From Candidatus Omnitrophota bacterium (GTDB taxonomy: Bacteria > Omnitrophota > Omnitrophia > Omnitrophales > JACROU01), in the NCBI GenBank assembly GCA_016214265.1, contig JACROU010000037.1, forward strand, positions 3,859 through 67,858: a DNA stretch of 64,000 nucleotides. The letters run 5' to 3'. Below the pieces are notes generated by a model, which saw only the letters and a list, made by a program, of their open reading frames with translations, did not search any database and was not told the origin of the DNA. The translations under genes and the position numbers were made by a program. Shown here piece by piece: positions 1,532-55,600 of this stretch. Numbering within the stretch: position 1 is the first letter of the stretch; each line of letters begins with the position of its first letter.

Positions 1532-1968
1532 TTTGTGATTTATGTCATCATGAATTTAACGAGTCCGAAGCTCGAGGCGCATGTTCCGGCTGTGGCACGC
1601 AAAAAAGCTGTGGCGGCGTTCGCTGTCCCCGCTGTTACTACGAGATGGTTTCAGCGCCCGGATGGATTTCTGGAATTGCGAGATTTTTTAATCGAAAATC
1701 TGGGCGTGAGGCTGTGTGTGAAGAGAAGGAATTTTCAGAAAAATCCGGAGTTTCTCTGAATGAATTTGAAGTAAACCGATCCGCCGAAATCGTTGATTTG
1801 CGGACAGTGGACAATCTTATTCTCAGAAAGATTATTGCGATGGATGCGCTTCCCGGGGCAAAGATTACGCTTGTCCAAAAATTCCCCTCTTTGGTTTTCC
1901 GAATCAACGAGAGTTCATTCTCGATCGATAAAGAGCTGGCTTCTGTTATTTGCGTCAAACCGATTTAG
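1528..1968 (+). CDS. FeoA-domain protein with N-terminal Cys4 zinc-ribbon
   Basis: ATG at 1528 overlaps the feoB stop. N-terminus has CDLC...CSGCG...CPRC. C-terminus (IVDLRTVDNLILRKIIAMDALPGAKITLVQKFPSLVFRINESSFSIDKELASVI) matches the FeoA SH3-like fold. The longer 1390 ORF is an in-frame upstream extension overlapping feoB. Confidence 0.6.
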   Translation: MICDLCHHEFNESEARGACSGCGTQKSCGGVRCPRCYYEMVSAPGWISGIARFFNRKSGREAVCEEKEFSEKSGVSLNEFEVNRSAEIVDLRTVDNLILRKIIAMDALPGAKITLVQKFPSLVFRINESSFSIDKELASVICVKPI

Positions 1969-2843
1969 TCTCGAGCCAGCATGTTAATGAAAAGTTGAGC
2001 GGGGTGTGTCGGCACTCTTTCGTTTAAGGTGATAATGCCGATCGGTCGTGAAAGCTGCAAATCCGAAATCCGAATAGATGTTATCAGTCCCTGAGCCACT
2101 TCTTTTTCAACGGCTTTGCGGGGCACAATCGATATTCCTAATCCTACTTCCACAGCTTTTTTTATCGTGTCAATATTATCGTTGGTCATTCGAATGAAAA
2201 CTTTTACTTCCTTGCTATTTAGCGCTTCGTTGATGGCCTCCCTTGTGGGAATTCCTTCGTCAAAAGTGATGAAGTTTTCGTTATTAATTTCCTGCAATTT
2301 GATGCTGCGTTTTTTTGCCAGGTGGTGTTTGGGAGGGGCAATTAAAATAAGGTTATCTTTGCCGGCAGGGGTGATCTTGATTCTCGGTCGGTTCTTAGGA
2401 TAAGCAACAATGCCGAAATCAATTTTTTCTTGAAGAATAAGATCATAGATCAAGTCCGATCTACTGTATTGAAGATGAATGTAGATATCCGGATAGGCGC
2501 GAATAAATTTTTTCAGATTGGCAGCCAGCTCGTAGATGCCGATGCTATAGACTGTGGCAATCTTGACATTTCCCTTTAGTGTTTTGGTTTTGTTGGAGAG
2601 GTGGGATTTTAAATTTCCGATCCGGGTTAAGAGGTCTTCGACGTAAGGAAGCAAAAATTCCCCTTCCTTGGTCAGACTTACTTTTCGCGGCGCGCGGTCA
2701 AACAGCCGGCATCCCAGCAGCTCCTCAAGATTTTTAATGTGCGAGCTGACGGACGGCTGTGTCAGAAAATTCAATTTTCCGACTTTGGCAAAATTTTTCT
2801 CGTAGGCAATATCTTTGAATATTTTCAAGCTGAGGGTGTTCAT
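1965..2843 (-). CDS. LysR-family transcriptional regulator
   Basis: N-terminal HTH (LKIFKDIAYEKNFAKVGKLNFLTQPSVSSHIKNLEELLGCRLFDR) plus LysR substrate-binding domain. Divergent from the cytochrome cluster. Confidence 0.85.
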   Translation of the reverse strand: MNTLSLKIFKDIAYEKNFAKVGKLNFLTQPSVSSHIKNLEELLGCRLFDRAPRKVSLTKEGEFLLPYVEDLLTRIGNLKSHLSNKTKTLKGNVKIATVYSIGIYELAANLKKFIRAYPDIYIHLQYSRSDLIYDLILQEKIDFGIVAYPKNRPRIKITPAGKDNLILIAPPKHHLAKKRSIKLQEINNENFITFDEGIPTREAINEALNSKEVKVFIRMTNDNIDTIKKAVEVGLGISIVPRKAVEKEVAQGLITSIRISDLQLSRPIGIITLNERVPTHPAQLFINMLARD

Positions 2844-3036
2844 AGATAGAAATAATTTATCATTGCAATATTAAAAATCAATTATTTTTATCGATTGTAT
2901 CGTGCGATTATAATTTCCAGTGACACACGTTCATTCATTAAGCTATAATGATTTTCAGTCGTAACTATAAAACATCATTCAGTTTGAGCGGGTTTGTTAT
3001 TTTCTTCCTTTTCTCTTCAATAATTTCGGAGTTCGT
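2844..3036. promoter_or_regulatory. Divergent AT-rich promoter region between the LysR gene and the cytochrome cluster; contains dyad ATCAAT-N7-ATCGAT (T-N11-A-like) around 2876-2897
   Basis: AT-rich 190-bp intergenic with inverted repeat. Typical LysR autoregulatory/target architecture. Confidence 0.3.
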
Positions 3037-3828
3037 ATGGCAAAACAATTTTGTTGGGTGAAAGCGATTGGAGCATTTGCCTCAGTCGTTATTTTTTTGT
3101 TCGTAGTATCCGGCCAAGCGATGGGCGCCGAGCAGAAGAAAGAGAAATCTTACCCCTTCGAAGGTTTCGTTGGCGTTAAGGGATCAAAATATGTTGGTCA
3201 GGAAACCTGTGAAATGTGTCACGAAAAAGAAGCCCGCGAGTTTAAACTTTCCACCCATTCAAGACTCAATATCGAACATGGTCAGACAAAGGCGCAAGGA
3301 TGCGAAATGTGCCACGGCCCCGGAAGCATTCACGTGGATGCGGGCGGAGGCAAAGGAAAAGGGATTATCAACCCAAGAAAAAATCCTGAAGTTTGTTTTT
3401 CCTGCCATATGGATAAGAAAATGGAATTTCGCCTGCCGTTTCATCATCCCGTTTTGGAGGGTAAAATGGGGTGCGCGGACTGTCATTCCGCGCACGGTGC
3501 CGAAGTCAAGCCTTGGTCTGCGACGACGCTTAGCGGTATGAATGAAGCCTGCTATAAATGCCATAAGATTCAACGCGGTCCTTTTGTGTGGGAGCATGAG
3601 GCTCTTCGTGAAGGCTGCACCGCTTGTCATAAGGTTCATGGTTCGGTTAATGACAAGATGCTGCTTATTCGCGATAGCAATTTGTGCTTAAGATGTCATA
3701 CCCAAATGGATTTTCCAGTGATTGGAAGATCTAACCATGCGGCCCGAATGCCTCAAGGAACTTGCTTTAGTGCAGGGTGTCATACAGCGGTTCATGGATC
3801 GAATTTTGATGATCATCTGCGATATTAG
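3037..3828 (+). CDS. Octaheme c-type cytochrome, secreted (signal peptide)
   Basis: Seven CxxCH (CEMCH, CEMCH, CFSCH, CADCH, CYKCH, CTACH, CLRCH) plus one CxxxCH (CFSAGCH) in 263 aa. N-terminal signal/anchor. Confidence 0.85.
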   Translation: MAKQFCWVKAIGAFASVVIFLFVVSGQAMGAEQKKEKSYPFEGFVGVKGSKYVGQETCEMCHEKEAREFKLSTHSRLNIEHGQTKAQGCEMCHGPGSIHVDAGGGKGKGIINPRKNPEVCFSCHMDKKMEFRLPFHHPVLEGKMGCADCHSAHGAEVKPWSATTLSGMNEACYKCHKIQRGPFVWEHEALREGCTACHKVHGSVNDKMLLIRDSNLCLRCHTQMDFPVIGRSNHAARMPQGTCFSAGCHTAVHGSNFDDHLRY

Positions 3829-3837
3829 AGGGTTACG

Positions 3838-5919
3838 ATGAAAACTACTTTACGCATAGTGCTGGCAGAAATTTTAATCGGTGGATTGTTACTCGTACCT
3901 GGAACCGTTTCTGCGGGAGAGACCGGAACGGAAACAGCGCCTGTTACCTTTGCGCCAGTTCCAGTGCAATATGCTTTTGTGGATGGCGATATGGCCAAGT
4001 TCCAAAACCATAAATGGATGAAGGGTGATTATAACGCAGGGGCGGATAATTCTACGGCGGAGTATAAACTACCCAAAGGCGTAACGTTGTCGATGGAAGG
4101 AAGTGGTCTCGTCCCTCAAAACGATTTTGGTGCGAAAACATCTATTACCAAAGAAAACTTGGGATTTGTCAATTTTGATTTTAAACAATTCCGCCGGTAT
4201 TACGACACGACGGGCGGCGTTTACGACCGATTTGCGACGCTCAGGCACAATGAATTAGACAAAGGTCTTCACATGGATATCGGTCATTTGGGAGTGGATA
4301 CCGGAATTACTATCAAAAATTGGCCTCACTTGGGTTTCGAATACGATCGGGATTACCGGCTTGGCGCCAAATCGCGTCTTTCGTGGGGCGGTGTTACCGA
4401 AGGGGCTATTCTCCGCTACATTTTTCCTTCCTATCAGGAGATCAATCAAAGCGTGGATACTTTTGCTATCAAAGCGGATCACACCATCGGTGGATATAAA
4501 CTAAAAGCAGATCAACGATGGGAACTATTCCGGGCGGATACTTCGCGATGGGAGCAGTGGATGGCAACGACCGGAGTGGCTGCGGATAATAAAAGGCGCC
4601 TGCAGCATCAAGAACCCAGTGCTGATCTGATGACCACAACGGTTGGAGCTGAGCGGTGGTTCAAGAAAGACAAAGTGTTTGTGTCTTCCGGGTATCGTTA
4701 TGCTCAAATGAAAAATAAAGAAATCGAATCCATATTTGAATTTGATGCCGCGGGGAGGCTTTTCAATAACGCCAATGCCAAAAGTGCCCGTAATTCTATT
4801 GCTCACAATAATATGGAGGATAACAGCTGGGTTGGAAATGCTATGTGGACTCCCTGGCATTCTTTGAGTTTGATTGCCAAATTGAAAGGCGACGTGTACC
4901 GAAATTTGGGATTTTCCACAAATCCCATGGATACAAATGCCGGTGTTCCGAATGGAGGAATCGATACTACGGAGATCAGCAATCTCAGCAATAAGATTGG
5001 AAGCGTTGCCGAATCGGTATCCGTGCGTTTTACCGGAATTCCCCATACAGCGCTTTACTCAGAAATGGAATTGCAGGAAATTGGGAATCGACGATATGAA
5101 AATCGTTTGAGCGTTGCTGGTCAGGCGGCTACTAGTGCCAATGAAAACTATACCAATTTGGTAAACATAAATAGTTATCGCCAGATGTGGACTATTGGCG
5201 GAAATTTTGCGCCTTGGTATTTTGTAAATACCACGGCAGATGTTCGCATTCGCCGGGAAAACGATGATTACGATTACATCAAAAACTCACCGCCGACGGG
5301 CGGCGAGCTTTTTCGCGCGTTCTTTGATTCATTAAAAATCAACACTAACGAATTCAAAACCCGGACTACCTTAAGATTGGTGAAGTGGCTGCAGCCAGCC
5401 TTCCGTTATCAGTTTCAAGAAAAGGATTTTTATGCGTTGCCGTATCATGAGCCGGTTTATGTGACGACGCGTACGATATCAAATACTTATACATATGACC
5501 TGATGTATCAGCCATTGGCAGATTTAATGACAATGATTTCATTTTCCAGGCAAACAATTAAAACTGTAACGCCTGCTCATAATTCAGCCCGAACAATGGG
5601 AGTTCCTCCAACTTATAACACCAATGTAAACATGTGGATGTTCAGTGCGGATTACGCCTTAAGGCCCGATTTGATTCTTACGGGTAGCCTTGATTTTTCA
5701 AGAGCGCCTAATTTCAATGATTATTCCACAATCGGTTTACCGCTTGGTGTTGACTACAATCAGATAGATTTAAATTTGGGCGTGCGCTGGGCTTTGAATA
5801 AACGGATTACGTTGGAACCGAAGTACTCCTATTACCATTACAATCCGAATCAAAACGTGGAGTATGGTAAATATGATGCTCATGTAATTTCGCTTGAAAT
5901 GCTCCTACCCTGGGGTTGA
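3838..5919 (+). CDS. Predicted outer-membrane beta-barrel protein (porin-like), candidate partner of the preceding multiheme cytochrome
   Basis: Signal peptide (LLVPGTVSAGE). 693 aa with no Cys, rich in Y/T/N/G and alternating amphipathic beta-strand patterns. Starts 10 nt after the cytochrome gene. Confidence 0.5.
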   Translation: MKTTLRIVLAEILIGGLLLVPGTVSAGETGTETAPVTFAPVPVQYAFVDGDMAKFQNHKWMKGDYNAGADNSTAEYKLPKGVTLSMEGSGLVPQNDFGAKTSITKENLGFVNFDFKQFRRYYDTTGGVYDRFATLRHNELDKGLHMDIGHLGVDTGITIKNWPHLGFEYDRDYRLGAKSRLSWGGVTEGAILRYIFPSYQEINQSVDTFAIKADHTIGGYKLKADQRWELFRADTSRWEQWMATTGVAADNKRRLQHQEPSADLMTTTVGAERWFKKDKVFVSSGYRYAQMKNKEIESIFEFDAAGRLFNNANAKSARNSIAHNNMEDNSWVGNAMWTPWHSLSLIAKLKGDVYRNLGFSTNPMDTNAGVPNGGIDTTEISNLSNKIGSVAESVSVRFTGIPHTALYSEMELQEIGNRRYENRLSVAGQAATSANENYTNLVNINSYRQMWTIGGNFAPWYFVNTTADVRIRRENDDYDYIKNSPPTGGELFRAFFDSLKINTNEFKTRTTLRLVKWLQPAFRYQFQEKDFYALPYHEPVYVTTRTISNTYTYDLMYQPLADLMTMISFSRQTIKTVTPAHNSARTMGVPPTYNTNVNMWMFSADYALRPDLILTGSLDFSRAPNFNDYSTIGLPLGVDYNQIDLNLGVRWALNKRITLEPKYSYYHYNPNQNVEYGKYDAHVISLEMLLPWG

Positions 5920-5931
5920 TAATCACACCCC

Positions 5932-7725
5932 ATGAAGCCGAAATCGCAGGGCGTAAGTCCTTACTATATCTTGAGAAGCTTTCTTTTTTCCTTCTTTAAT
6001 TTCTTTGCCTCTTTAAAGCTCGCCGTGTTTCTTCTTGTCGTGTTGGGAGTGACTTTAGCTGCCGGTACTTTTATTGAATCTGCTTCAGGAACTAAAGCCG
6101 CGCAGCAGATGGTTTACCATACCGCTGCGTTTAGTTTGCTTCTTGGCGTGTTGGCGATGAATCTGGCTTTCGCCGCTTTGGCACGGCTACCCTGGCAGAA
6201 AAAGCATGTGGGATTTGTGATGACTCATGCTGGGATTATCATGATTATCTTTGGATCGTGGATGACCACTCGATTCGCGATTGACGGCCAGCTGGCGTTA
6301 GCGGAAGGGGAAAGAGGAAACCAGATTTCCGTTGATGTCCCGCTCCTCCAAATATTTAATTCCCAAACCAAGCAAAGCATTGAAGTTCCTTTTAAACTTC
6401 CACCACGGCAATGGGAGGGTAATAAACCATTTATTTTGCATGACTTTGATGATGTTGCGGTTAATCTTTTAGCTTTTTTCCCGCATTCCAAACCGGTTGA
6501 GAAAATTGTTCCCAAGGCGGGCGGTTCTTCTGCCGTAGAGTTTGATATTTTTAATGAAAATATGCGTATGGGCGGCAGGCTTCTGGAAGAACAAGGGAAA
6601 GACAGTATGGATTTGGGGCCGGCAGTGGTTCGGTTTTCTTCCCAGGAAATTCCTTTGCCTACGAAAAAATCTGCTTCTTCCGACTCTTTGGGTGATTTGA
6701 TATTCAATTATCAGGGCAAACAAAGCAGGGTGTCCGTATCGAAGGCGCTCACCAAAGAAGTTTCTATTCCCAACACACCCTTCAAAATAAAAATTAATCG
6801 TTATTTGTCTCACGCGATTGTTGAAAATAATCAGCTGGTTGACCGGGGTGAAGCGGCCGTGAATCCGGCCTGTGAATTTGTGATTCTGGGAAAGAAAACG
6901 GAAGAAAAACATACCGCCTTCGCTTTTTTTCCGGATTTTCCGACGCTTCACGGTCGCGCGCCATCACAGACCGGATTGAAAATTCATTTTGAGGCTTCCG
7001 GGTTGGAACAGGGCGCTTCTGCAAACGAACTTCGGATTATCAAGAATGCTTCCGGAAAACTTTTCTATCAGACAAAAACTCAACAAACTGTGATTCCGCC
7101 GGTCCCGGTGGAAGTGGGGAAGGAATACGCTACAGGCTGGATGCATCTGAAATTTCTGGTTAAAACATTTTTTCCTGAAGCGGAACTTAAGTCTTATTTT
7201 GAACCACTGCCTCTTTCACCCCAGGAGAAAAATCCACGGCCGGTAGTTTTGATGGGATTTCAGAAAAACGGCCAGGAAGCGAAACTTTGGCTTCAGCGCG
7301 GAGATCATCAATTTGTTTTTTCCGAAAGTGCACCGCTTCATGTCATTTACGGCGAGAAAAATATTCCTCTTGGATTTGATATTGAGCTTAAAAAATTTAT
7401 GATCGATTATTATCCCGGTTCAGAGCGGCCCGCTGCGTTTAAAAGCGCTGTCAAGTTAATCGACCCCTCAAAAGGCGTTGACCGAGAGGTTGAGATCAGC
7501 ATGAATAAGCCGCTTTCTTACCGTGGATTCAAGGTTTTTCAGTCGGGATATCAGTTGAGCGAAGGCCGGCCCAAAGTGTCCATTTTCTCCGTGGGGCGTG
7601 ACCCGGGCATTCCGGTAAAATATGCGGGCAGCATTGTCATGATTCTTGGCGTTTTATTTATGTTTTATTTGAAAAGATTTTCAAGCAGCAAGCCTCTCTA
7701 TTCAAACGAAAGTGAGAAAAAATGA
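5932..7725 (+). CDS. ccsB: Cytochrome c biogenesis protein CcsB/ResB (System II)
   Basis: N-terminal TM helices, LKLAVFLL...IESASGT..AAQQMVYHT motif, large periplasmic domain, C-terminal TM. Confidence 0.8.
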   Translation: MKPKSQGVSPYYILRSFLFSFFNFFASLKLAVFLLVVLGVTLAAGTFIESASGTKAAQQMVYHTAAFSLLLGVLAMNLAFAALARLPWQKKHVGFVMTHAGIIMIIFGSWMTTRFAIDGQLALAEGERGNQISVDVPLLQIFNSQTKQSIEVPFKLPPRQWEGNKPFILHDFDDVAVNLLAFFPHSKPVEKIVPKAGGSSAVEFDIFNENMRMGGRLLEEQGKDSMDLGPAVVRFSSQEIPLPTKKSASSDSLGDLIFNYQGKQSRVSVSKALTKEVSIPNTPFKIKINRYLSHAIVENNQLVDRGEAAVNPACEFVILGKKTEEKHTAFAFFPDFPTLHGRAPSQTGLKIHFEASGLEQGASANELRIIKNASGKLFYQTKTQQTVIPPVPVEVGKEYATGWMHLKFLVKTFFPEAELKSYFEPLPLSPQEKNPRPVVLMGFQKNGQEAKLWLQRGDHQFVFSESAPLHVIYGEKNIPLGFDIELKKFMIDYYPGSERPAAFKSAVKLIDPSKGVDREVEISMNKPLSYRGFKVFQSGYQLSEGRPKVSIFSVGRDPGIPVKYAGSIVMILGVLFMFYLKRFSSSKPLYSNESEKK

Positions 7726-9341
7726 AAATTTTTCGAGCTCTTTTGCTATTGATTCCTGTTTGTTTCTATTCTGCTCCTGCGATTTGCGGGTCTCACAGCA
7801 ATTTTGATATTAAGTCGCTCGAAAAGATGGCGGTGCAAAGCGGGGGGCGAATCAAGCCTTTCAGCAGTTTCTCAAAAGAAGTGGTTTTGTATGTAACAGG
7901 AAAAGAACGTTTCGCAGGTAAAGATGCCAACACCCTGCTTTTGGAATGGATCGCAAAACCTGAGCAGTGGGAAGCGCAGCCTCTGATTCCGGTTTCCAAT
8001 CAGGCATTAAGGACTTTTTTGGGAATTCCTGCTGAAACGAAAAGAGTCAGCCCGCATTTTCTTTCTTCGAGCCGTGTTTTTCTCGACAGCGTGGCGCAAA
8101 TCGATGCCAAACAATCGCAAGGGGAAGTGTTAAGCACGGTTGATAAAGCGGAGATTGAGCTTTATCAAAAAATGAGTCTGTTTTATGCCTCGTGCGAAGG
8201 AAAAAACTGGTCTGTTATTCCTAATCCATCTTCCCCTCATGACAAGTGGCTCTCCATCGATATGATTAAAACAGATCAGAGAATTGGCAGTCTGGCTGTT
8301 CCGCTCAATACGATGCTGGAAAGTTACCGCTCAAATGATCCGGTGAAATTCAAACAGGCGAGCGAAGAGTTTATCAATCGGTTGGGATTACAGAATTCTT
8401 TTACGCTGGAAATTCAATACAATCACTTAAGGCCTTTCGGATGGGCTTGGCATTTGTATTTGCTGGGATTTTTGATTTTTCTGATAAATTTTGTTTTAAA
8501 GAAATCGTTTTTATCATGGATTGGGGTGGGCAGCGTTATTTTGGGATTTCTGCTGCACACTTATGGATTTGTTCTGCGGTGCATTATTTCGGGCAGGCCT
8601 CCTGTTAGCAACATGTACGAGTCTGTTATCTGGGTTTCGTGGGCGGCGGTTTTGTTTGCGGTTATCCTTTTCTTCGTTTACCGCTCAACGTATGTCACTC
8701 TGGCAGCGTCGGCGATTGCTGCAGTCGGCTTAATTCTGGCAGATAGTTTGCCGGCGGTTTTGGATCCTTCGATCTCGCCTCTGGAACCGGTTTTAAGAAA
8801 TAATTTTTGGCTGACAATTCATGTTCTGACGATCACGTTAAGTTACGGCGCTTTTGCTCTGGCTCTAGCTATTGCACATATTTCTCTCCTCATGCATGTG
8901 TTTCAGACGAAAAATGAAAATCTTCTTCGCATTATCACCGAATTTCTTTACCGGGCGTTGCAAATCGGTGTTGTTCTTTTGGCGGCGGGAACTATTTTGG
9001 GTGGTGTTTGGGCAAATTACTCTTGGGGCCGGTTTTGGGGCTGGGATCCCAAAGAAACTTGGGCCTTAATCGCTCTTCTCGGATATTTGGCTATTCTTCA
9101 TTGCCGTTATGTCGGCTGGATCGGTCCGTTTGGTCTTGCTGTTGGCGCCTCAGTTGCATTTCTGGGCGTTCTGATGGCATGGTACGGTGTCAACTTTGTT
9201 CTTGCCGCGGGACTTCACAGTTATGGTTTTGCCGGCGGCGGACTTCCTTATGTCGGCGCTTTCGTCATCGCCGATTTATTGCTGGTGGCCTTACTCTCTT
9301 TTGTTTATTGGAAAAAGACGCAAATCAAAACTTCTCACTAA
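7722..9341 (+). CDS. ccsA: Cytochrome c biogenesis protein CcsA/ResC with ~240-aa N-terminal periplasmic extension
   Basis: Trp-rich heme-handling motif WGRFWGWDPKETWAL and multi-TM CcsA core. Start overlaps the ccsB stop. Confidence 0.8.
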   Translation: MKIFRALLLLIPVCFYSAPAICGSHSNFDIKSLEKMAVQSGGRIKPFSSFSKEVVLYVTGKERFAGKDANTLLLEWIAKPEQWEAQPLIPVSNQALRTFLGIPAETKRVSPHFLSSSRVFLDSVAQIDAKQSQGEVLSTVDKAEIELYQKMSLFYASCEGKNWSVIPNPSSPHDKWLSIDMIKTDQRIGSLAVPLNTMLESYRSNDPVKFKQASEEFINRLGLQNSFTLEIQYNHLRPFGWAWHLYLLGFLIFLINFVLKKSFLSWIGVGSVILGFLLHTYGFVLRCIISGRPPVSNMYESVIWVSWAAVLFAVILFFVYRSTYVTLAASAIAAVGLILADSLPAVLDPSISPLEPVLRNNFWLTIHVLTITLSYGAFALALAIAHISLLMHVFQTKNENLLRIITEFLYRALQIGVVLLAAGTILGGVWANYSWGRFWGWDPKETWALIALLGYLAILHCRYVGWIGPFGLAVGASVAFLGVLMAWYGVNFVLAAGLHSYGFAGGGLPYVGAFVIADLLLVALLSFVYWKKTQIKTSH

Positions 9342-9363
9342 AATCCAAGGTGATGTTTTGCCT

Positions 9364-10269
9364 ATGAGATGTATTGCTCCAATATCGGCACGAATTAGCG
9401 TTGTTGCCGCTTTTTTGCTTCTGCTTTTCGTCGGCGTACAAAAATTTGTGTGGGCGGTAGAAGCGCCTAAAAATAATTCGTGCGTCACGTGTCACATGGA
9501 TATTTGGGAAGAAACGAAAGACAGCATTCACTCTAGTGAGGGGATTACCTGCAACAATTGTCACGGCGGTGATCCGGCCAAAAAAGAAAAAGAACTCGCC
9601 AAAGCACCCGCCACGGGTTATATCGGAATTCCTGACAAAAAACAGATCGTGAATATGTGCGGTACCTGTCACGCCAACGTTGAGGTGATGAATTTTTATG
9701 GTATTCGTACCGATCAGCTGGCCCGGTATAAAACCAGTATGCATGGAAAAAAACTATTAATTGACGGTGATACACACGTTGCTGCTTGTGCGGATTGCCA
9801 TGGCTATCACAATATTCTTGGTATTGGCGACCCGCAAAGTTCCGTTTATCCTACAAATGTTCCAAAGACATGCAATAAGTGTCATGGCAATGAGAAATTG
9901 ATGGGGCGTTACCATCTTCCGTCAGACATCTTCAAACAATATGAAAATAGTGCCCACGGCGTTGCTTTACTCGTGAAAAACGATCTTTCTTCGGCAAACT
10001 GTGTTAGCTGTCACGGAAGTCACGGAGCCATGCCTCCTGGAGTGAAAGAAGTCAGTGACACTTGCGGCAAATGTCACATTAACGAAAAAAAATTCTTTTT
10101 GACCAGCGAACACGCCAAGTTGGCTGAAGGCAGCAAGTTTTCAGAATGTATATCCTGCCATGGTTTTCATGGCATTCAACACCCCACAATTCAATTGTTC
10201 AGTACGGCTTGCTCGAAATGTCATAATGTGAAAAGCTTGGCGGCGCAAAGAGCGCTTTCAATGCAATAA
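9364..10269 (+). CDS. Nonaheme c-type cytochrome, N-terminally membrane-anchored
   Basis: Nine CxxCH motifs (CVTCH, CNNCH, CGTCH, CADCH, CNKCH, CVSCH, CGKCH, CISCH, CSKCH). Likely ATG at 9364 (MRCIAPISARISVVAAFLLLLFVG). The 9187 ORF start is an upstream extension overlapping ccsA. Confidence 0.8.
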   Translation: MRCIAPISARISVVAAFLLLLFVGVQKFVWAVEAPKNNSCVTCHMDIWEETKDSIHSSEGITCNNCHGGDPAKKEKELAKAPATGYIGIPDKKQIVNMCGTCHANVEVMNFYGIRTDQLARYKTSMHGKKLLIDGDTHVAACADCHGYHNILGIGDPQSSVYPTNVPKTCNKCHGNEKLMGRYHLPSDIFKQYENSAHGVALLVKNDLSSANCVSCHGSHGAMPPGVKEVSDTCGKCHINEKKFFLTSEHAKLAEGSKFSECISCHGFHGIQHPTIQLFSTACSKCHNVKSLAAQRALSMQ

Positions 10270-10272
10270 CTG

Positions 10273-10638
10273 TTGTTAAAATCCCAAACGGAAGTTAGCG
10301 AGACAAAAGCCGTAGTGAAAGCAGCGGCGAATCAGGGTCTTTTTGTTGATGAAGAAAAAGCCGCTTTTGATGAAGCCAATACCAGTTTGATTGAGATGGG
10401 AATAACTCAGCATTCGCTTTCTGTCGGTGAGTTGTCAAAGCTTTCAAATAAAGTTGAAGCTACAACCGAACAAATCCGAAAAGGTATAAATCATAAGTAT
10501 CAAGGTTTGAAGTGGCGGAAAATTGCGCTTATTATTGTGTGGATTTTTGTCCTATTGATGGTTGTGGCGTTGTGGACTAAATATAAACGTTTAAAGTTTA
10601 TCAGGGATGAGAGAAAGAAAAAACACGACGATGAGTGA
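10273..10638 (+). CDS. Small hypothetical protein with C-terminal TM helix
   Basis: ORF has a non-ATG start, a single hydrophobic C-terminal segment (IALIIVWIFVLLMVVALW), and sits between the cytochrome and Rieske genes. Start uncertain. Confidence 0.3.
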   Translation: MLKSQTEVSETKAVVKAAANQGLFVDEEKAAFDEANTSLIEMGITQHSLSVGELSKLSNKVEATTEQIRKGINHKYQGLKWRKIALIIVWIFVLLMVVALWTKYKRLKFIRDERKKKHDDE

Positions 10639-11101
10639 TTCAGGTAAAGATCAAAATCTGGAGAAGCCTTTGTACGAAAAGTCTTTGTCGAGACGCGATT
10701 TTATCAGCTGGATTATCAAGGGCGGATTATTTATCACGTTTTTGAGCATGCTATTGCCCGCATTGGAATATATTTGGCCGGTGACTCGCCGTGGTCCAGT
10801 GGGCGGGGCTAATGATGTTGGTCGCGCCGATGACATTCCCGTTGGCAGCGCAAAAAAAGTAGATGTGTCCGGGACTCCGCTCATTTTAATTCACACACCG
10901 CAAGGATTTAATGCCTTCTCGGCGATTTGCACTCACCTTGGTTGTCTGGTGGGGTGGGATTCTCAGAAGCAATTAATTGCCTGCCCCTGTCATGCGGGAT
11001 TATTTGATACAACAGGCAGAGTGGTGGCGGGCCCGCCGCCAAGACCTTTGGCTTCTTATCCGGTGAATGTTGTGGATGGAAAAATTTTTATTAAACTCTA
11101 A
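10607..11101 (+). CDS. petA: Rieske [2Fe-2S] iron-sulfur subunit with twin-arginine signal (likely true start at 10631)
   Basis: SRRDFI Tat motif plus TM. Rieske boxes CTHLGC and CPCHAG. Confidence 0.85.
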   Translation: MRERKNTTMSDSGKDQNLEKPLYEKSLSRRDFISWIIKGGLFITFLSMLLPALEYIWPVTRRGPVGGANDVGRADDIPVGSAKKVDVSGTPLILIHTPQGFNAFSAICTHLGCLVGWDSQKQLIACPCHAGLFDTTGRVVAGPPPRPLASYPVNVVDGKIFIKL

Positions 11102-11124
11102 AACTCATTTTCAAAAAAATCCTC

Positions 11125-12294
11125 ATGATCAAACAATTTATTCAAAAGTGGTTTGAAGAGCGGTTTGACGTAGAGCAAATCAAACAGCCGCTAAAAAAGC
11201 AGATTGAGAAACCGCTTCCCCCGAACGTGGGTTGGCTTCACACACTGGGCAGTATGTCGTTGATCCTTTTTGTCAGTCAAGTCCTCACAGGGATTTTGCT
11301 GCTAATTTACTATCGTCCAACGGTCAACGAGGCGTTTGAAAGTGTGAAGTTCATCATGTCCAAAGCCTACATGGGATGGCTGTACCGGCAAATTCATGCC
11401 TGGGGCTCCAATCTCATGATCTTGATCGTATTTCTGCATATGCTGCGGACTTATATCATGGGATCTTTCAAGAAACCACGCGAGTTAACCTGGGTTTTTG
11501 GCGTTCTGCTTTTCTTTATAACACTTACTTTTGGTTTTACCGGATATCTTCTTCCCTGGAATCAGTTGTCATATTGGGCAACAACGGTGGGGACGGAACT
11601 GGCTGGGGGGGTTCCCTGGATTGGCTTGTTTATTAAAACCTTGCTGAGGGGAGGCCAGTCGGTGGGCGGTGAGACGCTTTCCCGTTTCTTTGTTGTGCAT
11701 GTCATCATATTGCCTTGGGCGCTTTTTTTCCTGATCATCATTCACATTTTTCTTGTTCGCTTTCAGGGAATTTCAACCATGGAGCCGGTTGGTGAGGAAA
11801 AGAAAGTTAAGCCCGATGAAGGAATTCCATTCTATCCCCATCATGCATTAAAAGAAGGCGTTGTGTTTTATCTTTTAATGGCCGTCCTGATTACGCTATC
11901 GATTTTAGTTCCTTTTGAGTTGGGAGAAAAAGCTGATCCCCTCCAAACGCCGGCTGGTATCAAACCCGAATGGTATTTTTTGCCCATGTATCAGGTGCTG
12001 AAATATTTCCCCAAAATGATAGGTATCTTTGTCGTTGGTTTGGCGCCGCTATTTTTGCTGTTCTGGGCTTTTTTGGATAACAGTAAACAACGCAATCCTC
12101 TTAAAAGACCCTTTTCGATAACGTTTTGCATTCTTGTCCTTATATCTCTGGTTGTGTTCGGAGTGATGGGGGCGTATTCAGAAACTAAAGTAACTTTATT
12201 TGGCAAAACTTACGATGTGGATGTGTACGGCGTTCCTCATCTGGCCGCCGCAAATATTATCGATCAAATTAATCCCGAGAAATCAACGACATGA
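11125..12294 (+). CDS. petB: Cytochrome b (fused b6/subunit IV-like, 389 aa)
   Basis: Canonical cytochrome b motifs (YMGWLYRQIHAWGSNLMILIVFLHMLRTY; LPWNQLSYWATTV). Multi-TM. Confidence 0.85.
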   Translation: MIKQFIQKWFEERFDVEQIKQPLKKQIEKPLPPNVGWLHTLGSMSLILFVSQVLTGILLLIYYRPTVNEAFESVKFIMSKAYMGWLYRQIHAWGSNLMILIVFLHMLRTYIMGSFKKPRELTWVFGVLLFFITLTFGFTGYLLPWNQLSYWATTVGTELAGGVPWIGLFIKTLLRGGQSVGGETLSRFFVVHVIILPWALFFLIIIHIFLVRFQGISTMEPVGEEKKVKPDEGIPFYPHHALKEGVVFYLLMAVLITLSILVPFELGEKADPLQTPAGIKPEWYFLPMYQVLKYFPKMIGIFVVGLAPLFLLFWAFLDNSKQRNPLKRPFSITFCILVLISLVVFGVMGAYSETKVTLFGKTYDVDVYGVPHLAAANIIDQINPEKSTT

Positions 12295-13790
12295 GTGAAG
12301 AAAAGAAACGAAATATTTATTTTCGAAACTGGATGAGTGTTATCGGCGGAATTCTCTCCGTAATTTTGTTTGCCGTTATTTTATTTCTGTTCGTTTTAGA
12401 CTTCCTTGATAAAGGGTTGAACCCTTATTTGGGAATTTTTACCTACGTTGTTGTGCCGGTTTTTTTGGTGATCAGTCTTTTGATGATTCCCATCGGCGCC
12501 TGGCGCGAGCGTGCACGATTTAAAAAACTTGGCCATGTTCAGCAATTTCCCCAGATTGATTTTAATAATCCCACACACCAGAAGATAGCATTTGCGGCTT
12601 GGGGCGTAGTTACGCTGTTTCTTCTTTTTTCAATGGTGGGTGCGTACCGGGCTTACGAGTTTTCGGAGTCTGTCACTTTTTGCGGGCGCACCTGTCATGG
12701 CGTGATGGGACCGGAATATATTGCGTACAAAAATTCCCCGCACGCGCATGTAGCCTGTGTGGAATGCCACATTGGGCCTGGGATTGACTGGTATATCCGT
12801 TCAAAACCTTCCGGAGCCCGTCAGGCTTATTTAACTCTTACAAACCGTTTTAATCGTCCTATTCCAACACCGATAAAGACGCTTCGCCCTGCTCGCGAAA
12901 CTTGTGAGCATTGCCATTGGCCCGAGCAGTTTTACGGGGATAAAGAAGTAAATCATAAATACTTTCTGCCTGATGAAACGAACACAGAATGGAAGGCTCG
13001 ATTACTTGTCCATGTGGGCGGTGCCAAGCCTCGTTATGGGCAGGGTGAAGGCATTCACTGGCATATGAAAGTTAATAATCAGGTTTATTACATCGCCACG
13101 GATGAGAAGAAAGAAAACATTCCATGGGTGCGGCAGATCAATCCTGATGGTAAAGAAGAGATATTTGTTGAAGAAAAATCCGGATACAGCGCTTCGAATC
13201 CGCCAAAAGGTGAAATCAAATTAATGGATTGTATGGATTGTCACAATCGCCCAAGCCATCACTTCAAAGCGCCATCGGAGTCCGTAAATGAAGCGATGGG
13301 CTTTGGACAGATTGACAGTTCACTGCCTTATATAAAACGTGAGGCGGTGAAAGCCTTGGTGGGGAATTACAAATCGAACTCAGAAGCAAAAGCCGAAATT
13401 CGCAAACGTCTCGAGACTTTTTACCGGGAAAAATACCCCGCAATTTGGGAGTCGAAAGGTAAAGAATTGCAGAGCAGTATTGACCGGGTGATTAATATTT
13501 ATAATGTCAACTTTTTCCCAGAAATGAAAACGTCATGGAAGGTGCATCCCAACAATATTGGGCATTTCATCTCTACGGGATGTTTTCGCTGCCACGATGA
13601 CAAACACAAAACTGCGGAAGGTAAAGTGATCCGGAAAGATTGTGCTATGTGTCATGCGATTATTGAGCAGGGCAAACCGGAGTTACTGGAAACTGCTGTG
13701 GCCGGGGTTGAATTCAAGCATCCCGAGGATATTGGCGAGGAATGGAAAGAGACGAAATGTTCTGATTGCCATACTGGCGAACTGGCTTAG
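12291..13790 (+). CDS. Membrane-anchored multiheme c-type cytochrome (about 7 hemes), c-type subunit of the Rieske/cyt b complex
   Basis: Two N-terminal TM helices. CxxCH x6 (CVECH, CEHCH, CMDCH, CFRCH, CAMCH, CSDCH) plus CGRTCH. Start overlaps the cyt b stop. Confidence 0.8.
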   Translation: MSEEKKRNIYFRNWMSVIGGILSVILFAVILFLFVLDFLDKGLNPYLGIFTYVVVPVFLVISLLMIPIGAWRERARFKKLGHVQQFPQIDFNNPTHQKIAFAAWGVVTLFLLFSMVGAYRAYEFSESVTFCGRTCHGVMGPEYIAYKNSPHAHVACVECHIGPGIDWYIRSKPSGARQAYLTLTNRFNRPIPTPIKTLRPARETCEHCHWPEQFYGDKEVNHKYFLPDETNTEWKARLLVHVGGAKPRYGQGEGIHWHMKVNNQVYYIATDEKKENIPWVRQINPDGKEEIFVEEKSGYSASNPPKGEIKLMDCMDCHNRPSHHFKAPSESVNEAMGFGQIDSSLPYIKREAVKALVGNYKSNSEAKAEIRKRLETFYREKYPAIWESKGKELQSSIDRVINIYNVNFFPEMKTSWKVHPNNIGHFISTGCFRCHDDKHKTAEGKVIRKDCAMCHAIIEQGKPELLETAVAGVEFKHPEDIGEEWKETKCSDCHTGELA

Positions 13791-13798
13791 CGCAGTTA

Positions 13799-13814
13799 TG
13801 TGACCTTCGTCACA
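13799..13814. promoter_or_regulatory. CRP-family-like binding site TGTGACCTTCGTCACA (TGTGA-N6-TCACA)
   Basis: Perfect CRP consensus half-sites. Extended 24-mer matches the site at 53012 at 21/24 positions, differing only within the spacer (shared ATGTGA plus CGTCACAGTTTT). About 150 bp upstream of the tetraheme cytochrome gene. Confidence 0.4.
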
Positions 13815-13967
13815 GTTTTAAACCGGGTTCTCTCGCTATAATTCGCTCTTGTCTTTGGAATTAGAGAACATTCCCATCGAATAGATTATTCGGTCGCACG
13901 TCTTATTAATTACAAAAGTTTTCGTTTTTCTATCAAAGTAGGCGAAGCGCAAACAAGGAGGATAGCG

Positions 13968-14522
13968 ATGAAGTCAGGTTATTTGTTGCCACAATTATTA
14001 AGGAGCTTTCTGGTTTTAACTGTTTTTGCTTTTTTGGCCACCCCCGTAGCTTTTGCCGCTGATCATGAATATGTCGGGGCGGCAAAATGCGGAATTTGCC
14101 ATAAGAAACCAGAGCAGGGCGAACAATATCGTATTTGGCAGGAATCAAAACATGCCAAGGCTTTTGAAGCACTGGGAACTCCCGAGGCAAAAGAAGTCGG
14201 CGCTAAACTGGGAATTGATGATCCTCAAAAGAGCGGAAAATGTTTGAAATGTCATTCCACGGCTTATGGACATACAGAACAAGTTGTTACGGATGCGATC
14301 CCGGTTGAAGAAGGCGTTTCTTGCGAAACATGCCATGGTGCCGGAAAAGATTATATGAAAAAGAGCGTCATGGAAGATGTTAACGCCGCGAAAGAAGCGG
14401 GATTAATTATTCCGGATGAGGCGACTTGCACAAAATGCCACAATTCGGAGAGCCCGACGTTCAAGCCGTTTGATTACAAAGAACGTTATGAGAAAATTAA
14501 ACATCCTAAACCCAATAAATAA
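13968..14522 (+). CDS. Periplasmic tetraheme c-type cytochrome
   Basis: Signal peptide. Four CxxCH (CGICH, CLKCH, CETCH, CTKCH). Strong RBS AAGGAGG upstream. Confidence 0.8.
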   Translation: MKSGYLLPQLLRSFLVLTVFAFLATPVAFAADHEYVGAAKCGICHKKPEQGEQYRIWQESKHAKAFEALGTPEAKEVGAKLGIDDPQKSGKCLKCHSTAYGHTEQVVTDAIPVEEGVSCETCHGAGKDYMKKSVMEDVNAAKEAGLIIPDEATCTKCHNSESPTFKPFDYKERYEKIKHPKPNK

Positions 14523-14704
14523 AATTTAACTAACGATACGTTTTCCTCCGTAAACGCCTCCTGGCGAAGAGTACAGAAATGAAAAGACTTCGTTTCTGCA
14601 AACTTCGTTCAGGGGGCGTTTTTATTTGTGATTGTGTAACCCGTGTCATTGGCACAAGTTGTAATCCTGGGGTACTATTTAGGTGGATTGAGTGGGAGGA
14701 TGGC

Positions 14705-15628
14705 ATGACAGAAGAAATGGAGTATTTTCAAAAATACCGTTCGCTCTATGAAGAGGCGGTGTTGCGGTATGTTTGTACCCGCTGCATTGACTTTGGAAAT
14801 GATGGCGTTTGTCATTCTGAAGATCCAAAAGGGTGTGCGGTATTCCGCTATTTGCCCGAATTGATAGCAATTGCAAGACGTATTCACGAACCCAGTATTG
14901 TCCCTTACGTTGATGCCGTGCGTCAAACTGTGTGTGTGCATTGCCGGGCCTTAACCCCTGAGGGGATGTGCCCATTGCGTGCCAAATTAGATTGCGGATT
15001 GGACCGCTACTTAATTCTTGTTATCGAAGCAATGGGGAAAGTGGATGCAATTTTGAAGAATGAGGAAAAAGACAGAGATAGATTGAGTAATGAATCGAAA
15101 AACATCACGTCACTTTTGATCCAACGTTGCCGGAGGGTGTTGGATAGAATTTTTTCATTGGATGAAATGCTGAGAGGATTTTGTTATTCAGGAGAGACGG
15201 CTTATCAGGAAAATTTAATACAAATGAATGAAGTTTCAAAATTTTTCTCAAGATTTTTCTCAAGAGAATGGAACAAGCATATGACGATTGAAAAGGAAAT
15301 ATTGTTTCCGTTTGCGATTGCACATTTGCCGCAAATAAGGCCGGCTATAGATTTTCTGGAATCAAAACACGCTGAATACAGAAAAAAACTTCAAGAATTA
15401 AGAACGCGATATGATGATTTTAAATGGGCAGTAGGTGATGAAGGGAGGAAAAAAGCGGTAGAAAAATTTCAAAATCTCGGAATTTCTTTGGCCAAGCTAT
15501 TCAATGAGTACATTGAGATTGAAGCAAAGAATGTGTATAAAGTGTTGGATCGCGAGCTTTCAGAAGATGACAAATTGGAGCTTATGAGAAAAATTTATCT
15601 CCGCAATGTCAGTCGTAGAGCGGCATAA
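14705..15628 (+). CDS. Cys-rich N-terminal domain / hemerythrin-like C-terminal domain protein
   Basis: GGAGG RBS before the ATG at 14705. N-terminus has CTRC...C...CVHC...C. C-terminus resembles a hemerythrin HHE cation-binding domain and is paralogous to 52196..52720 (shared EILFP[FY] and YKV[LI]DREL). Confidence 0.4.
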   Translation: MTEEMEYFQKYRSLYEEAVLRYVCTRCIDFGNDGVCHSEDPKGCAVFRYLPELIAIARRIHEPSIVPYVDAVRQTVCVHCRALTPEGMCPLRAKLDCGLDRYLILVIEAMGKVDAILKNEEKDRDRLSNESKNITSLLIQRCRRVLDRIFSLDEMLRGFCYSGETAYQENLIQMNEVSKFFSRFFSREWNKHMTIEKEILFPFAIAHLPQIRPAIDFLESKHAEYRKKLQELRTRYDDFKWAVGDEGRKKAVEKFQNLGISLAKLFNEYIEIEAKNVYKVLDRELSEDDKLELMRKIYLRNVSRRAA

Positions 15629-15631
15629 TCC

Positions 15632-16390
15632 ATGTCCGCATTTTTTTCTTCCAGACGACAAGAACAAGATCTTTACGTTGACACTAATTACAAAATCATT
15701 TTCGACGATGACTGTTTAATGGTAGTTGAAAAGCCCGCACCGCTTCCGGTCCACCGTGTCGGTCGTTTCCTCGAAAAAAATTTACTCTCGCTTCTCGAAA
15801 AAAATTTATCTCGCGAGACGGGTTCTTTGCATATCGTGAACCGCCTTGATTCAGAAACCAGCGGATTGGTGCTTGTTGCAAAGACACGTCAATCAGCGGC
15901 TCATTTGAAATCGCAGTTTCAAAATCGAAACGTGAAGAAAGAATATGCGGCTATCGTTTTCGGAATTCCAAAAAGTAAACGAGGGCGGATTGCCTTGCCG
16001 CTTGGAGCCGATATCCAGAATACGTTTCATCTGACGGTGCCTGATCCTGCCGGTCAAAGCGCAGAGACGTGTTATGAGATGATCGAAGAAAGGGAAGGAT
16101 ATGCCTTGCTGCGAGTCGAGCCGCTTACTGGGCGAACGCATCAAATTCGCGCGCATTTGGCTTCGATCGGACATCCGATTGTGGGCGATAAAATTTATAT
16201 CGACCTGTCAATTTATGAGCGGTATGTTCAGGAAGGGTGGCGGGAGGAAATGCTTGAGAAAATGAAATTACCGCGCCTGGCTTTGCATGCGACGGGTCTT
16301 GAATTTCGACATCCGTTGAGTGAGATAAAAATGATGTTTCAGAGCGAACTGCCGCCGATTCTCAAAAAATTCCCCTGTTTTTTGCCGTGA
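15632..16390 (+). CDS. RluA-family pseudouridine synthase
   Basis: Catalytic motif HRLDSETSGLVLVAKT. RluA-family length and layout. Confidence 0.8.
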   Translation: MSAFFSSRRQEQDLYVDTNYKIIFDDDCLMVVEKPAPLPVHRVGRFLEKNLLSLLEKNLSRETGSLHIVNRLDSETSGLVLVAKTRQSAAHLKSQFQNRNVKKEYAAIVFGIPKSKRGRIALPLGADIQNTFHLTVPDPAGQSAETCYEMIEEREGYALLRVEPLTGRTHQIRAHLASIGHPIVGDKIYIDLSIYERYVQEGWREEMLEKMKLPRLALHATGLEFRHPLSEIKMMFQSELPPILKKFPCFLP

Positions 16391-16424
16391 CTTTCATGTC
16401 CCTGGTAGATAAAATTTCCTCACT

Positions 16425-16994
16425 ATGGCAAATTTTTGGCATTGGCTGATTATTCAAGACCAAAGTTTCTTTCTTGCCGCGAATCATTTTCTGAATCAAA
16501 TTCCAGGATCCGAATACATTCTTGGATGGCCGACAATTTTGGGTCAGCCTCGATTTGCTCTTCCGCTCGCGGCCATATTTTTGTTTTTCGGGGATCGACC
16601 GAGATGGTGGCGAGTTTTCCTGATTGTATCAGCAGCCTACGTAATTTCAGGGGGCGCTTCGGAACTTCTTAAAGACCTTATACAGCGCGATCGTCCTTTC
16701 GAAACTTTTTCATCTGTTTGTACCCATTTCAAGTTGCCGACTACGAAGGCGTTTCCTTCCGGACATGTCGTCGTGGTGACCTGTGTGATTTTCGTGCTGA
16801 ATCAAATTTATAGCAATAAGCTGGTATGGTGTTATTTGTTAGTTTTTTGGATGGCGATAACCCGGATTTATGTTGGCGTGCATTATCCGTTGGATGTGAT
16901 CGCGGGTTTTTTTGTGGGGTTGACCGGAAGTTGGATCAGCTTGCGGCTTTTTCGAAGATCGGTGATCGGGGCAGAGCATGACAAAAGAAAATAA
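16425..16994 (+). CDS. PAP2-family phosphatase (membrane)
   Basis: KDLIQRDRP ... PSGH ... VGVHYPLDV acid-phosphatase motifs. Multi-TM. Confidence 0.7.
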   Translation: MANFWHWLIIQDQSFFLAANHFLNQIPGSEYILGWPTILGQPRFALPLAAIFLFFGDRPRWWRVFLIVSAAYVISGGASELLKDLIQRDRPFETFSSVCTHFKLPTTKAFPSGHVVVVTCVIFVLNQIYSNKLVWCYLLVFWMAITRIYVGVHYPLDVIAGFFVGLTGSWISLRLFRRSVIGAEHDKRK

Positions 16995-55597: not shown

Positions 55598-55600
55598 TTT

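Follow-up and report, generated by a model that had tools for sequence, protein, structure and literature searches.

Among the described trans-outer-membrane electron conduits, the MtrA-MtrB pair of Shewanella (PDB 6R2Q) combines a cytochrome with ten hemes and a beta-barrel of 26 strands, the cytochrome gene standing first, and it is served by the surface decaheme cytochromes MtrC or OmcA and, on the quinol side, by CymA. MtoAB of Sideroxydans and PioAB of Rhodopseudomonas are two-component versions with decaheme cytochromes and predicted 26-strand barrels, have no surface cytochrome (PMC10654088; PMC6344600) and work with CymA/MtoD or PioC as partners (PMC10654088). A survey of 2022 found mtrCAB in three phyla only, none of them in the Planctomycetes-Verrucomicrobia-Chlamydiae (PVC) superphylum (PMC8805035). 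Here we analyze a stretch of 64 kb of contig JACROU010000037.1 from Candidatus Omnitrophota, hereafter called the window, whose positions are used for all coordinates; its host belongs to the PVC superphylum and not, as for Mtr, to the Proteobacteria. The window carries on its plus strand two adjacent open reading frames (ORFs), one at 3037-3828 (263 amino acids, aa) for a secreted octaheme c-type cytochrome related to the MtrA/DmsE family, the putative wire, the other at 3838-5919 (693 aa) for a cysteine-free, predicted 26-strand outer-membrane beta-barrel remotely homologous to MtrB/PioB, the putative sheath. We propose that this pair is a trans-outer-membrane electron conduit of the MtrAB/MtoAB/PioAB type that is wired to the quinone pool, with a probability of about 0.8 which applies to conduit function and not to the direction of electron flow.

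The cytochrome contains seven CXXCH motifs, at residues 58, 89, 120, 146, 172, 194 and 217, and one atypical CX4CH motif (CFSAGCH) at residue 243, giving eight heme sites or about 33 aa per heme, a density like that of MtrA; the last site is the atypical one. The octaheme protein of 263 aa in our first-pass annotation is therefore correct in size, and correct in heme number only if the CX4CH site is counted. This site is kept in 84 of 88 cytochrome homologues, and the complete pattern of seven CXXCH plus one CX4CH in 75 of them. When compared with PDB sequences by phmmer, the protein matches MtrA of the solved Mtr complex (6r2q_A, E 8.5e-33). Further references were the MtrA and MtrB proteins of a genuine mtrCAB cluster in Photobacterium (locus L090), reached by tblastn of plasmids. 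The cytochrome shares 40% identity with Photobacterium MtrA over 155 aa (BLASTP, E 3e-33), and its hemes 3-8 pair one-to-one with hemes 5-10 of this protein. In a multiple alignment the two missing hemes fall at the N-terminus, on the side that faces the periplasm, while the local alignment of HMMER would also allow them to be two internal ones of the N-terminal half; as aligned, the C-terminal stretch of six hemes is complete either way. In the solved Mtr complex, MtrA hemes 5-10 lie within the barrel and reach the cell surface. The family is highly conserved, with an invariant C-terminal HGSNFD(D/E)HLRY in cytochromes of the Omnitrophota type. Judged from these alignments, the cytochrome is homologous to MtrA, and the homology extends to the barrel-embedded pentaheme half at the C-terminus.

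No cysteine occurs in the 693 aa of the second protein, as the first-pass annotation had stated, and both proteins start with signal peptides, as it had claimed, which are of the Sec type (read from the sequence as ...VVSGQAMG/AEQ for the cytochrome and ...VPGTVSA/GET for the barrel). The two genes are immediately adjacent, separated by 9 nucleotides (nt), AGGGTTACG, with a Shine-Dalgarno-like GAGGG, rather than by the 10 nt first reported; mtrA and mtrB likewise stand with the cytochrome gene first and about 10 nt between the two (cf. the Photobacterium cluster). The beta-barrel that had been proposed was indeed predicted: AlphaFold2, run on an alignment of 16 sequences, returned 26 long antiparallel strands spanning residues 43-692, as many as in MtrB, without a plug domain (mean predicted local distance difference test score 79.8, predicted template modelling score 0.68). 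The best structural match of this model in the PDB is MtrB (6r2q_B), which Foldseek ranked first with E 7e-11, template modelling (TM) scores of 0.60/0.63 and 556 aligned residues, all other structures remaining at TM 0.45 or less.

This comparison bears on the possibility that the barrel serves as a plain channel for nutrients or export (TonB-dependent, LptD-like or a general porin), the cytochrome then being a soluble periplasmic carrier with a meaningless adjacency to it. Transporters align with the barrel model over about 400 residues at TM 0.45 or less, against the 556 residues at 0.60 for MtrB. TonB-dependent transporters possess an N-terminal plug domain and a barrel of 22 strands; such an identity was rejected, as the window protein matches neither the Plug nor the TonB_dep_Rec model of Pfam and its 26 strands begin around residue 43, with no plug. 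An LptD-like identity was likewise rejected on the basis of the barrel model and its structural comparison, in which MtrB was the best match and the others did not exceed TM 0.45. The full-length profile homology to MtrB/PioB described below argues in the same direction, as does the pairing of the two genes in 77 of 77 assessable loci over several phyla, which would be unexpected for unrelated functions. The reading as a nutrient porin is therefore effectively excluded.

The relationship of the barrel to MtrB emerged only by structure comparison and profile-profile alignment. With Photobacterium MtrB as the starting point, we gathered 69 PF11854 proteins and aligned 27 diverse ones as an MtrB/PioB profile, with which a profile of 62 members of the window barrel family was compared by hhalign. 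The match had a probability of 99.5% and an E value of 5.1e-23 over 601 aligned columns, and was colinear end to end (34-686 vs 41-701), from the N-terminal strand to the C-terminal residue. Aligned with the single MtrB sequence, a one-sequence template, the same family profile gave a probability of 34% and was out of register. By this profile evidence the barrel is a full-length, if very remote, homologue of MtrB/PioB. Unlike Photobacterium MtrB and the majority of the PF11854 set, it does not have an N-terminal CXXC. In public databases it bears the NCBI name 'hypothetical protein', with a 100% identical entry from a Candidatus Omnitrophica metagenome-assembled genome (MAG). A word-indexed search retrieved 17 relatives, the named ones of which were from Omnitrophica, and an exhaustive profile search brought the family to 857 cluster representatives (at 50% identity) with E of 1e-3 or less, 342 of which have E of 1e-30 or less.

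The pairing of the two genes was then followed across genomes. The octaheme gene lies directly upstream of the barrel gene in all six loci reached through barrel homologues, and the same is found for a deltaproteobacterial barrel that is 21% identical to that of the window. Scanning one genome per species of GTDB with the cytochrome alignment yielded at least 565 loci confirmed by tblastn, a number to be taken as an upper bound for this subfamily, and the best 80 of these were inspected. In 77 of the 80, hmmsearch of six-frame ORFs detected a member of the barrel family directly downstream of the cytochrome, and in the other three the contig ends less than 200 nt past the cytochrome stop; the co-occurrence that the first-pass annotation had suggested for verification thus amounts to an obligatory pairing, 77 of 77 assessable species-level loci. 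Because the barrel ORF follows immediately in all loci except those cut by the contig end, the adjacency is not due to chance. The best 80 loci carry the labels Omnitrophota, 'Planctomycetales/Planctomycetia' MAGs, Scalindua (anammox), Brocadiaceae, Brocadiia, Deltaproteobacteria, Haliangiales, Verrucomicrobiota/Chthoniobacterales, Eisenbacteria and unclassified bacteria. Pairwise distances of cytochromes and barrels from 67 complete pairs are closely correlated (r 0.89, Mantel p 0.001), which shows that the pair is inherited as a unit. The mean pairwise distance is 0.68 for the barrel and 0.37 for the cytochrome, indicating that the barrel evolves about twice as fast as its cytochrome, and for this reason it is missed by the Pfam model.

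Variants of both proteins occur among the related loci. An N-terminal extension of about 130 aa, with an additional CXXCH and a DxDGDG-like segment, converts 9 of the 88 cytochromes into nonaheme proteins of about 380-425 aa (loci L005, L007, L024, L039, L040, L043, L057, L060 and L070). A lipoprotein-type signal (e.g. LLSC or ITSC) is present on the octaheme cytochromes of anammox, Verrucomicrobiota, Deltaproteobacteria/Haliangiales and some Omnitrophota loci (L071-L073, L075-L089, L015, L021, L032, L058, L065 and L067), whereas the window clade has an ordinary signal peptide. MtrA is not a lipoprotein, and the anchoring of the wire may vary among clades. In distant members of the barrel family, of about 770-915 aa, one or two monoheme cytochrome c domains of the Planctomycete type (PSCyt1) precede the barrel as an N-terminal fusion, as in L008:1024-4613, from a Roseibacillus-type member of Verrucomicrobiota, and in P0104, P0118, P0120, P0133, P0145 and P0150. 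The fused barrel of L008 is still preceded by an octaheme gene (seven CXXCH and CX4CH), which the gene caller had overlooked. A cytochrome fused to an MtrB-like barrel is reminiscent of Cyc2, but on a 26-strand scaffold.

Several results weigh against the conduit interpretation. The barrel sequence has no match in Pfam, NCBIfam or PDB sequences (by phmmer), nor do hidden Markov models of its family find one in the PDB; PF11854 in particular, with a gathering score of 23 bits, does not match the window barrel at E values up to 0.1. The cytochrome scores 166.7 bits (E 6.5e-49) with TIGR03508, the NCBIfam model of DmsE/MtrA decaheme cytochromes, and so remains below the cutoff of 192.2; it has eight heme sites where the MtrA/DmsE family is defined by ten CXXCH. 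Co-inheritance would by itself be enough to produce the correlation of distances, which is no proof of physical contact. Finally, that eight hemes would be enough to span barrel and membrane has its precedent in octaheme OmaB of Geobacter, by analogy only. Regarding the first two of these points, PF11854 is weakly touched by 7 of 62 diverse members of the barrel family (best E 4.3e-6), and by its score with TIGR03508 the cytochrome is clearly related to that family even below its cutoff. Another decaheme model of NCBIfam, that of the GSU2203 family, gives 173 bits (cutoff 325), and these two curated families are the closest to the cytochrome.

Taken together with the homology to MtrAB, the scores below curated thresholds and the deviation from the ten-heme definition lead us to file the pair as a divergent subfamily of the MtrAB/MtoAB/PioAB superfamily, outside the curated families. 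The resemblance to MtrAB/PioAB-style conduits that had been noticed at first is thereby substantiated for both proteins, since the cytochrome is a homologue of MtrA and the barrel family a full-length remote homologue of MtrB/PioB; similarly, the structural comparison with MtrB that had been advised returned MtrB itself and not a nutrient porin. The first impression that the barrel belonged to no recognisable named family applies to searches of Pfam, NCBIfam and PDB sequences and does not survive profile-profile comparison, and what was called a novel system is, given its homology to MtrAB/MtoAB/PioAB, a divergent variant of a known conduit. In layout it is closest to MtoAB and PioAB, differing from them in its octaheme cytochrome and its quinol-side partners (see below); their barrels are recognized by PF11854 and that of the window is not, the two being compared through the PF11854 family profile only.

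Two further groups of systems deserve comparison. Geobacter OmaB, of the Pcc system OmaB-OmbB-OmcB, is a periplasmic octaheme cytochrome of similar size encoded beside a porin-like gene, and two-gene Pcc clusters without surface cytochrome are present in Anaeromyxobacter and Kuenenia (PMC4245776). Since Pcc proteins are reported as non-homologous to Mtr proteins (PMC6344600) and the window pair is homologous to the latter, its likeness to Pcc would be a functional analogy only; moreover, no OmcB-like gene is found in the 64-kb window. The Kuenenia Pcc pair kuste4024/4025 was rejected as a candidate, for the cytochromes of Kuenenia and Anaeromyxobacter have 12-14 hemes in 338-344 aa (PMC4245776), and so were PCC3 and PCC4 of Fe(II) oxidizers, which have cytochromes of about 21 or more hemes, or sets of 4, 5 and 10, plus an inner-membrane protein with five helices. 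In the literature searched on Omnitrophota/Omnitrophica we found no description of an octaheme-barrel pair. One of the supplementary tables of He et al. (2019) records for Verrucomicrobia an unnamed 'other putative PCC', in which cytochromes with 7 and 9 CXXCH lie beside a porin; it may represent the same family. The second group is represented by Zixibacteria RBG-1, where homologues of MtrA and MtrB share a gene cluster with a Rieske/cytochrome b complex (PetAB) and several multiheme cytochromes, periplasmic or of the inner membrane, without any extracellular cytochrome (Castelle et al. 2013; PMC3903129). The operon logic is the same as in the window, as far as the description of the cluster allows them to be likened; RBG-1 is of a different phylum and its MtrA is described as homologous to the decaheme.

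The window pair heads a tight operon on the plus strand, the genes from 3037 to 13790 being separated by 25 nt or less or overlapping. The barrel gene is followed after 12 nt by that of a ResB/CcsA-partner protein of the cytochrome c maturation System II (5932-7725; Pfam ResB, 80.9 bits), which overlaps by 4 nt the gene of a CcsB-type heme-handling protein of the same system (7722-9341; Pfam Cytochrom_C_asm and TIGR03144). The next gene encodes a secreted nonaheme cytochrome (9364-10269), recognized by its count of nine CXXCH, an N-terminal hydrophobic segment and Paired_CXXCH_1 and cytochrome c3 domains, which is a candidate periplasmic relay. After it comes a small protein with one C-terminal transmembrane helix (10273-10638; helix-like residues 78-96) and no match in Pfam or NCBIfam. 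Strong homologues of the nonaheme cytochrome are found in about 20 of the 80 related loci, mostly beside Rieske and cytochrome b genes, and in eight loci (L012, L014, L019, L035, L038, L045, L055 and L061) the small protein is fused to its C-terminus, a fusion which suggests that the nonaheme cytochrome is anchored to the membrane next to the Rieske/cytochrome b complex.

This complex is encoded immediately downstream on the same strand by genes for a Rieske [2Fe-2S] subunit (10607-11101; Pfam Rieske, 56.4 bits), nearest to b6f-type PetC models, and for a cytochrome b of the fused b6 plus subunit IV type (11125-12294; Pfam Cytochrome_B 187.6 bits and Cytochrom_B_C 70 bits), the quinol-oxidizing subunit, which scores 220.7 bits with the ExtP-like model of NCBIfam (cutoff 290). 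The last gene of the operon (12291-13790) encodes a heptaheme cytochrome of the inner membrane with NapC/NirT and NrfH domains, 499 aa in length, which has transmembrane-like segments at residues 11-29, 42-60 and 98-116, a CX3CH motif at 131, just after the third helix, and CXXCH motifs at 156, 205, 314, 431, 451 and 490. The published definition of ImcH is a protein of 495-519 aa with three N-terminal transmembrane helices, a CX3CH next to the third one and six CXXCH, and the supplement of the same survey contains three Omnitrophica ImcH homologues with motifs at 135, 159, 208, 317, 434, 454 and 494 (PMC6295460), i.e. with the spacing of the window protein, at an offset of 3-4 residues. By architecture and motif spacing, the protein falls within the definition of ImcH and is a candidate quinol oxidase, sharing the signature published for ImcH of Geobacter sulfurreducens, the inner-membrane quinol oxidase for high-potential extracellular acceptors. 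That survey of 2018 saw no mtrAB or mtoAB genes adjacent to imcH (PMC6295460), whereas in the window the ImcH-type gene shares one operon with an MtrAB-type pair. On the quinol side, therefore, ImcH-type and Rieske/cytochrome b modules stand where Shewanella Mtr has CymA, and MtoAB and PioAB have CymA/MtoD or PioC.

Past the operon lies the gene of a secreted tetraheme c554-like cytochrome (13968-14522, plus strand; Pfam Cytochrome_C554, 67.2 bits, four CXXCH), another candidate for a periplasmic relay, and after it that of a protein with a hemerythrin domain. Among the 80 related loci, ImcH-type homologues are present in 36, often as the next gene after that of the barrel, System II genes in 22-23, cytochrome b in 16, the Rieske subunit in 15 and the c554-like gene in 12; the latter is directly upstream of the octaheme gene in Scalindua and other loci of the anammox lineage (Brocadiia; L071-L074 and L080). 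No MtrC/OmcA-like surface cytochrome is encoded in the operon or in the whole window, in which the ORFs with two or more CXXCH are only those of the octaheme, nonaheme, ImcH-type and tetraheme cytochromes plus one with two motifs at the window end. The MtrC/MtrF domain model gives 32.7 bits with the nonaheme cytochrome (cutoff 30), without any individually significant stretch, and scores below cutoff with the octaheme and tetraheme cytochromes.

From these components a plausible path for electrons can be drawn. The octaheme cytochrome would be exported by Sec, receive its hemes from the co-encoded System II (ResB/CcsB) and thread into the lumen of the 26-strand barrel, where its eight close-packed hemes would cross the outer membrane in a chain insulated by the barrel. 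Its C-terminal six hemes would be the equivalent of MtrA hemes 5-10, with a periplasmic N-terminal end that is two hemes shorter. On the inner side, two quinol-oxidizing modules, the Rieske/cytochrome b complex and the ImcH-type heptaheme cytochrome, would connect to the quinone pool, and the soluble nonaheme and tetraheme cytochromes would bridge the periplasm. Since the window has no gene for an MtrC-like cytochrome at the surface, the CX4CH heme at the end of the chain would itself exchange electrons with a redox partner that lies outside the cell or is accessible at its surface, for example Fe(III)/Fe(II), Mn oxides or humic quinones.

We slightly favor outward flow, from quinol to an extracellular acceptor, a preference based on two components of the operon, the ImcH-type protein and the Rieske/cytochrome b complex: ImcH-type cytochromes were found in the 2018 survey only in Fe(III)-reducing organisms capable of extracellular electron transfer (EET) and are viewed as quinol oxidases (PMC6295460), and quinol oxidation is the forward reaction of the Rieske/cytochrome b complex. 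The same conduit might instead work inward like MtoAB and PioAB, a possibility that we consider real but not the likeliest, receiving electrons from Fe(II) outside the cell, from reduced minerals or from a partner cell and passing them through the periplasmic cytochromes to terminal reductases and, by a Rieske/cytochrome b complex operating in reverse, to the quinone pool. The absence of an MtrC/OmcA-like cytochrome from operon and window corresponds to the two-component layout of MtoAB/PioAB, and a missing surface cytochrome was the very argument with which Fe(II) oxidation was proposed for the MtrAB and PetAB genes of RBG-1 (Castelle et al. 2013; PMC3903129), which counts against the outward direction. 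Inward flow would also agree with the FeoB genes just upstream of the pair and with the N2O reductase cluster on the same contig, which needs a supply of electrons. Crp/FNR-type regulators near the pair in related loci fit either direction, and Mtr-type conduits are reversible in vitro, so that sequence cannot decide between the two.

The neighborhood of some relatives raises another alternative, namely that the pair resembles DmsEF in feeding a dedicated terminal reductase at the cell surface, for instance a molybdoenzyme or copper enzyme, instead of minerals. In one Omnitrophota locus (L004/L030, JACQQY010000013.1) the pair is flanked by two molybdopterin oxidoreductases, at about 4800-14900 in L004. 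Upstream there are genes for a 4Fe-4S subunit, a Mo enzyme, a NarJ-like chaperone and a TPM protein, and downstream those for a Mo enzyme and a NapB-like cytochrome, an arrangement that recalls dmsEFAB. A two-domain copper oxidase follows the pair in L001, and the curated families closest to the window cytochrome are named 'GSU2203 family decaheme' and 'DmsE family decaheme'. The usual location of Nap-type enzymes is the periplasm, however, and adjacency to them may be a mere clustering of respiratory genes. As the window operon has no such enzyme gene in it or beside it, and as Mo and copper enzyme neighbors are not conserved over the 80 loci, unlike the ImcH-type, Rieske/cytochrome b and System II genes, a conduit dedicated to a surface reductase appears improbable for the window, and we retain that of an MtrAB-type conduit connected to the quinone pool.

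Other features of the window and of its relatives complete the picture. A LysR-family regulator is divergently transcribed upstream of the pair (1965-2843, minus strand; Pfam HTH_1 and LysR_substrate) and by its position would be a candidate regulator of the operon; its match to the NCBIfam model of 'multiheme cytochrome-associated LysR' is weak and below threshold (79.6 bits, cutoff 210). A sigma-70-like promoter match on the plus strand (2920-2949), 88 nt upstream of the cytochrome start, agrees with the consensus at 11 of 12 positions and is the best site in 2700-16500, but constitutes weak evidence, given that the number of sigma-70-like sites is not above that expected from shuffling. The FeoB ORF at 50-1531 matches positions 171-593 only of the FeoB model and lacks the N-terminal GTPase domain, which may be encoded separately upstream of the window; its end is overlapped by a Cys-rich ORF (1390-1968). 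The N2O reductase cluster occupies 53570-58363, where a NosZ-like protein of 675 aa (nos_propeller plus cupredoxin) is followed by a 920-aa fusion of NosD and a NosF-like ABC ATPase, which shows that respiratory electrons have at least one further sink in this organism. The locus of the nearest relative of the window barrel (46% identity; L001:12107-14576) has the two-domain multicopper oxidase and not the Rieske/cytochrome b module. Four small ORFs without family match come after the pair there, along with the multicopper oxidase, and genes for a Crp/FNR regulator, a hemerythrin and an Aq_1264-type membrane protein precede it.

Beyond the window, the pair may tentatively be taken to define an unrecognized lineage of the MtrAB type in and beyond the PVC superphylum, possibly ranging over Omnitrophota, anammox Scalindua and other Brocadiia, Verrucomicrobiota, some Deltaproteobacteria and Myxococcota, and routinely coupled to ImcH-type and Rieske/cytochrome b modules. 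Surveys of EET depend on models of MtrA, MtrB and MtrC, with which a barrel that does not score in Pfam or NCBIfam and a cytochrome that remains below cutoff form a sizeable annotation blind spot, even though at least 77 genomes, counted at species level, have kept the pair. Provided that it is functional, EET would be within reach of several hundred species whose locus is annotated as 'hypothetical protein'. Recognition of the pair would add the PVC superphylum to the range known for Mtr-type conduits and would physically link ImcH-type quinol oxidases to an Mtr-type outer-membrane module, an association that was not seen in the survey of 2018. With its eight-heme build of the Mtr-type wire, it would be a new branch of a known principle and not a new principle. 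For Omnitrophota, to which an iron-related ecology has repeatedly been attributed as a suggestion, and for their relatives it would also supply a testable candidate for iron-linked metabolism; in Omnitrophota, which are often associated with hosts, a partner cell might exchange electrons directly through the conduit.

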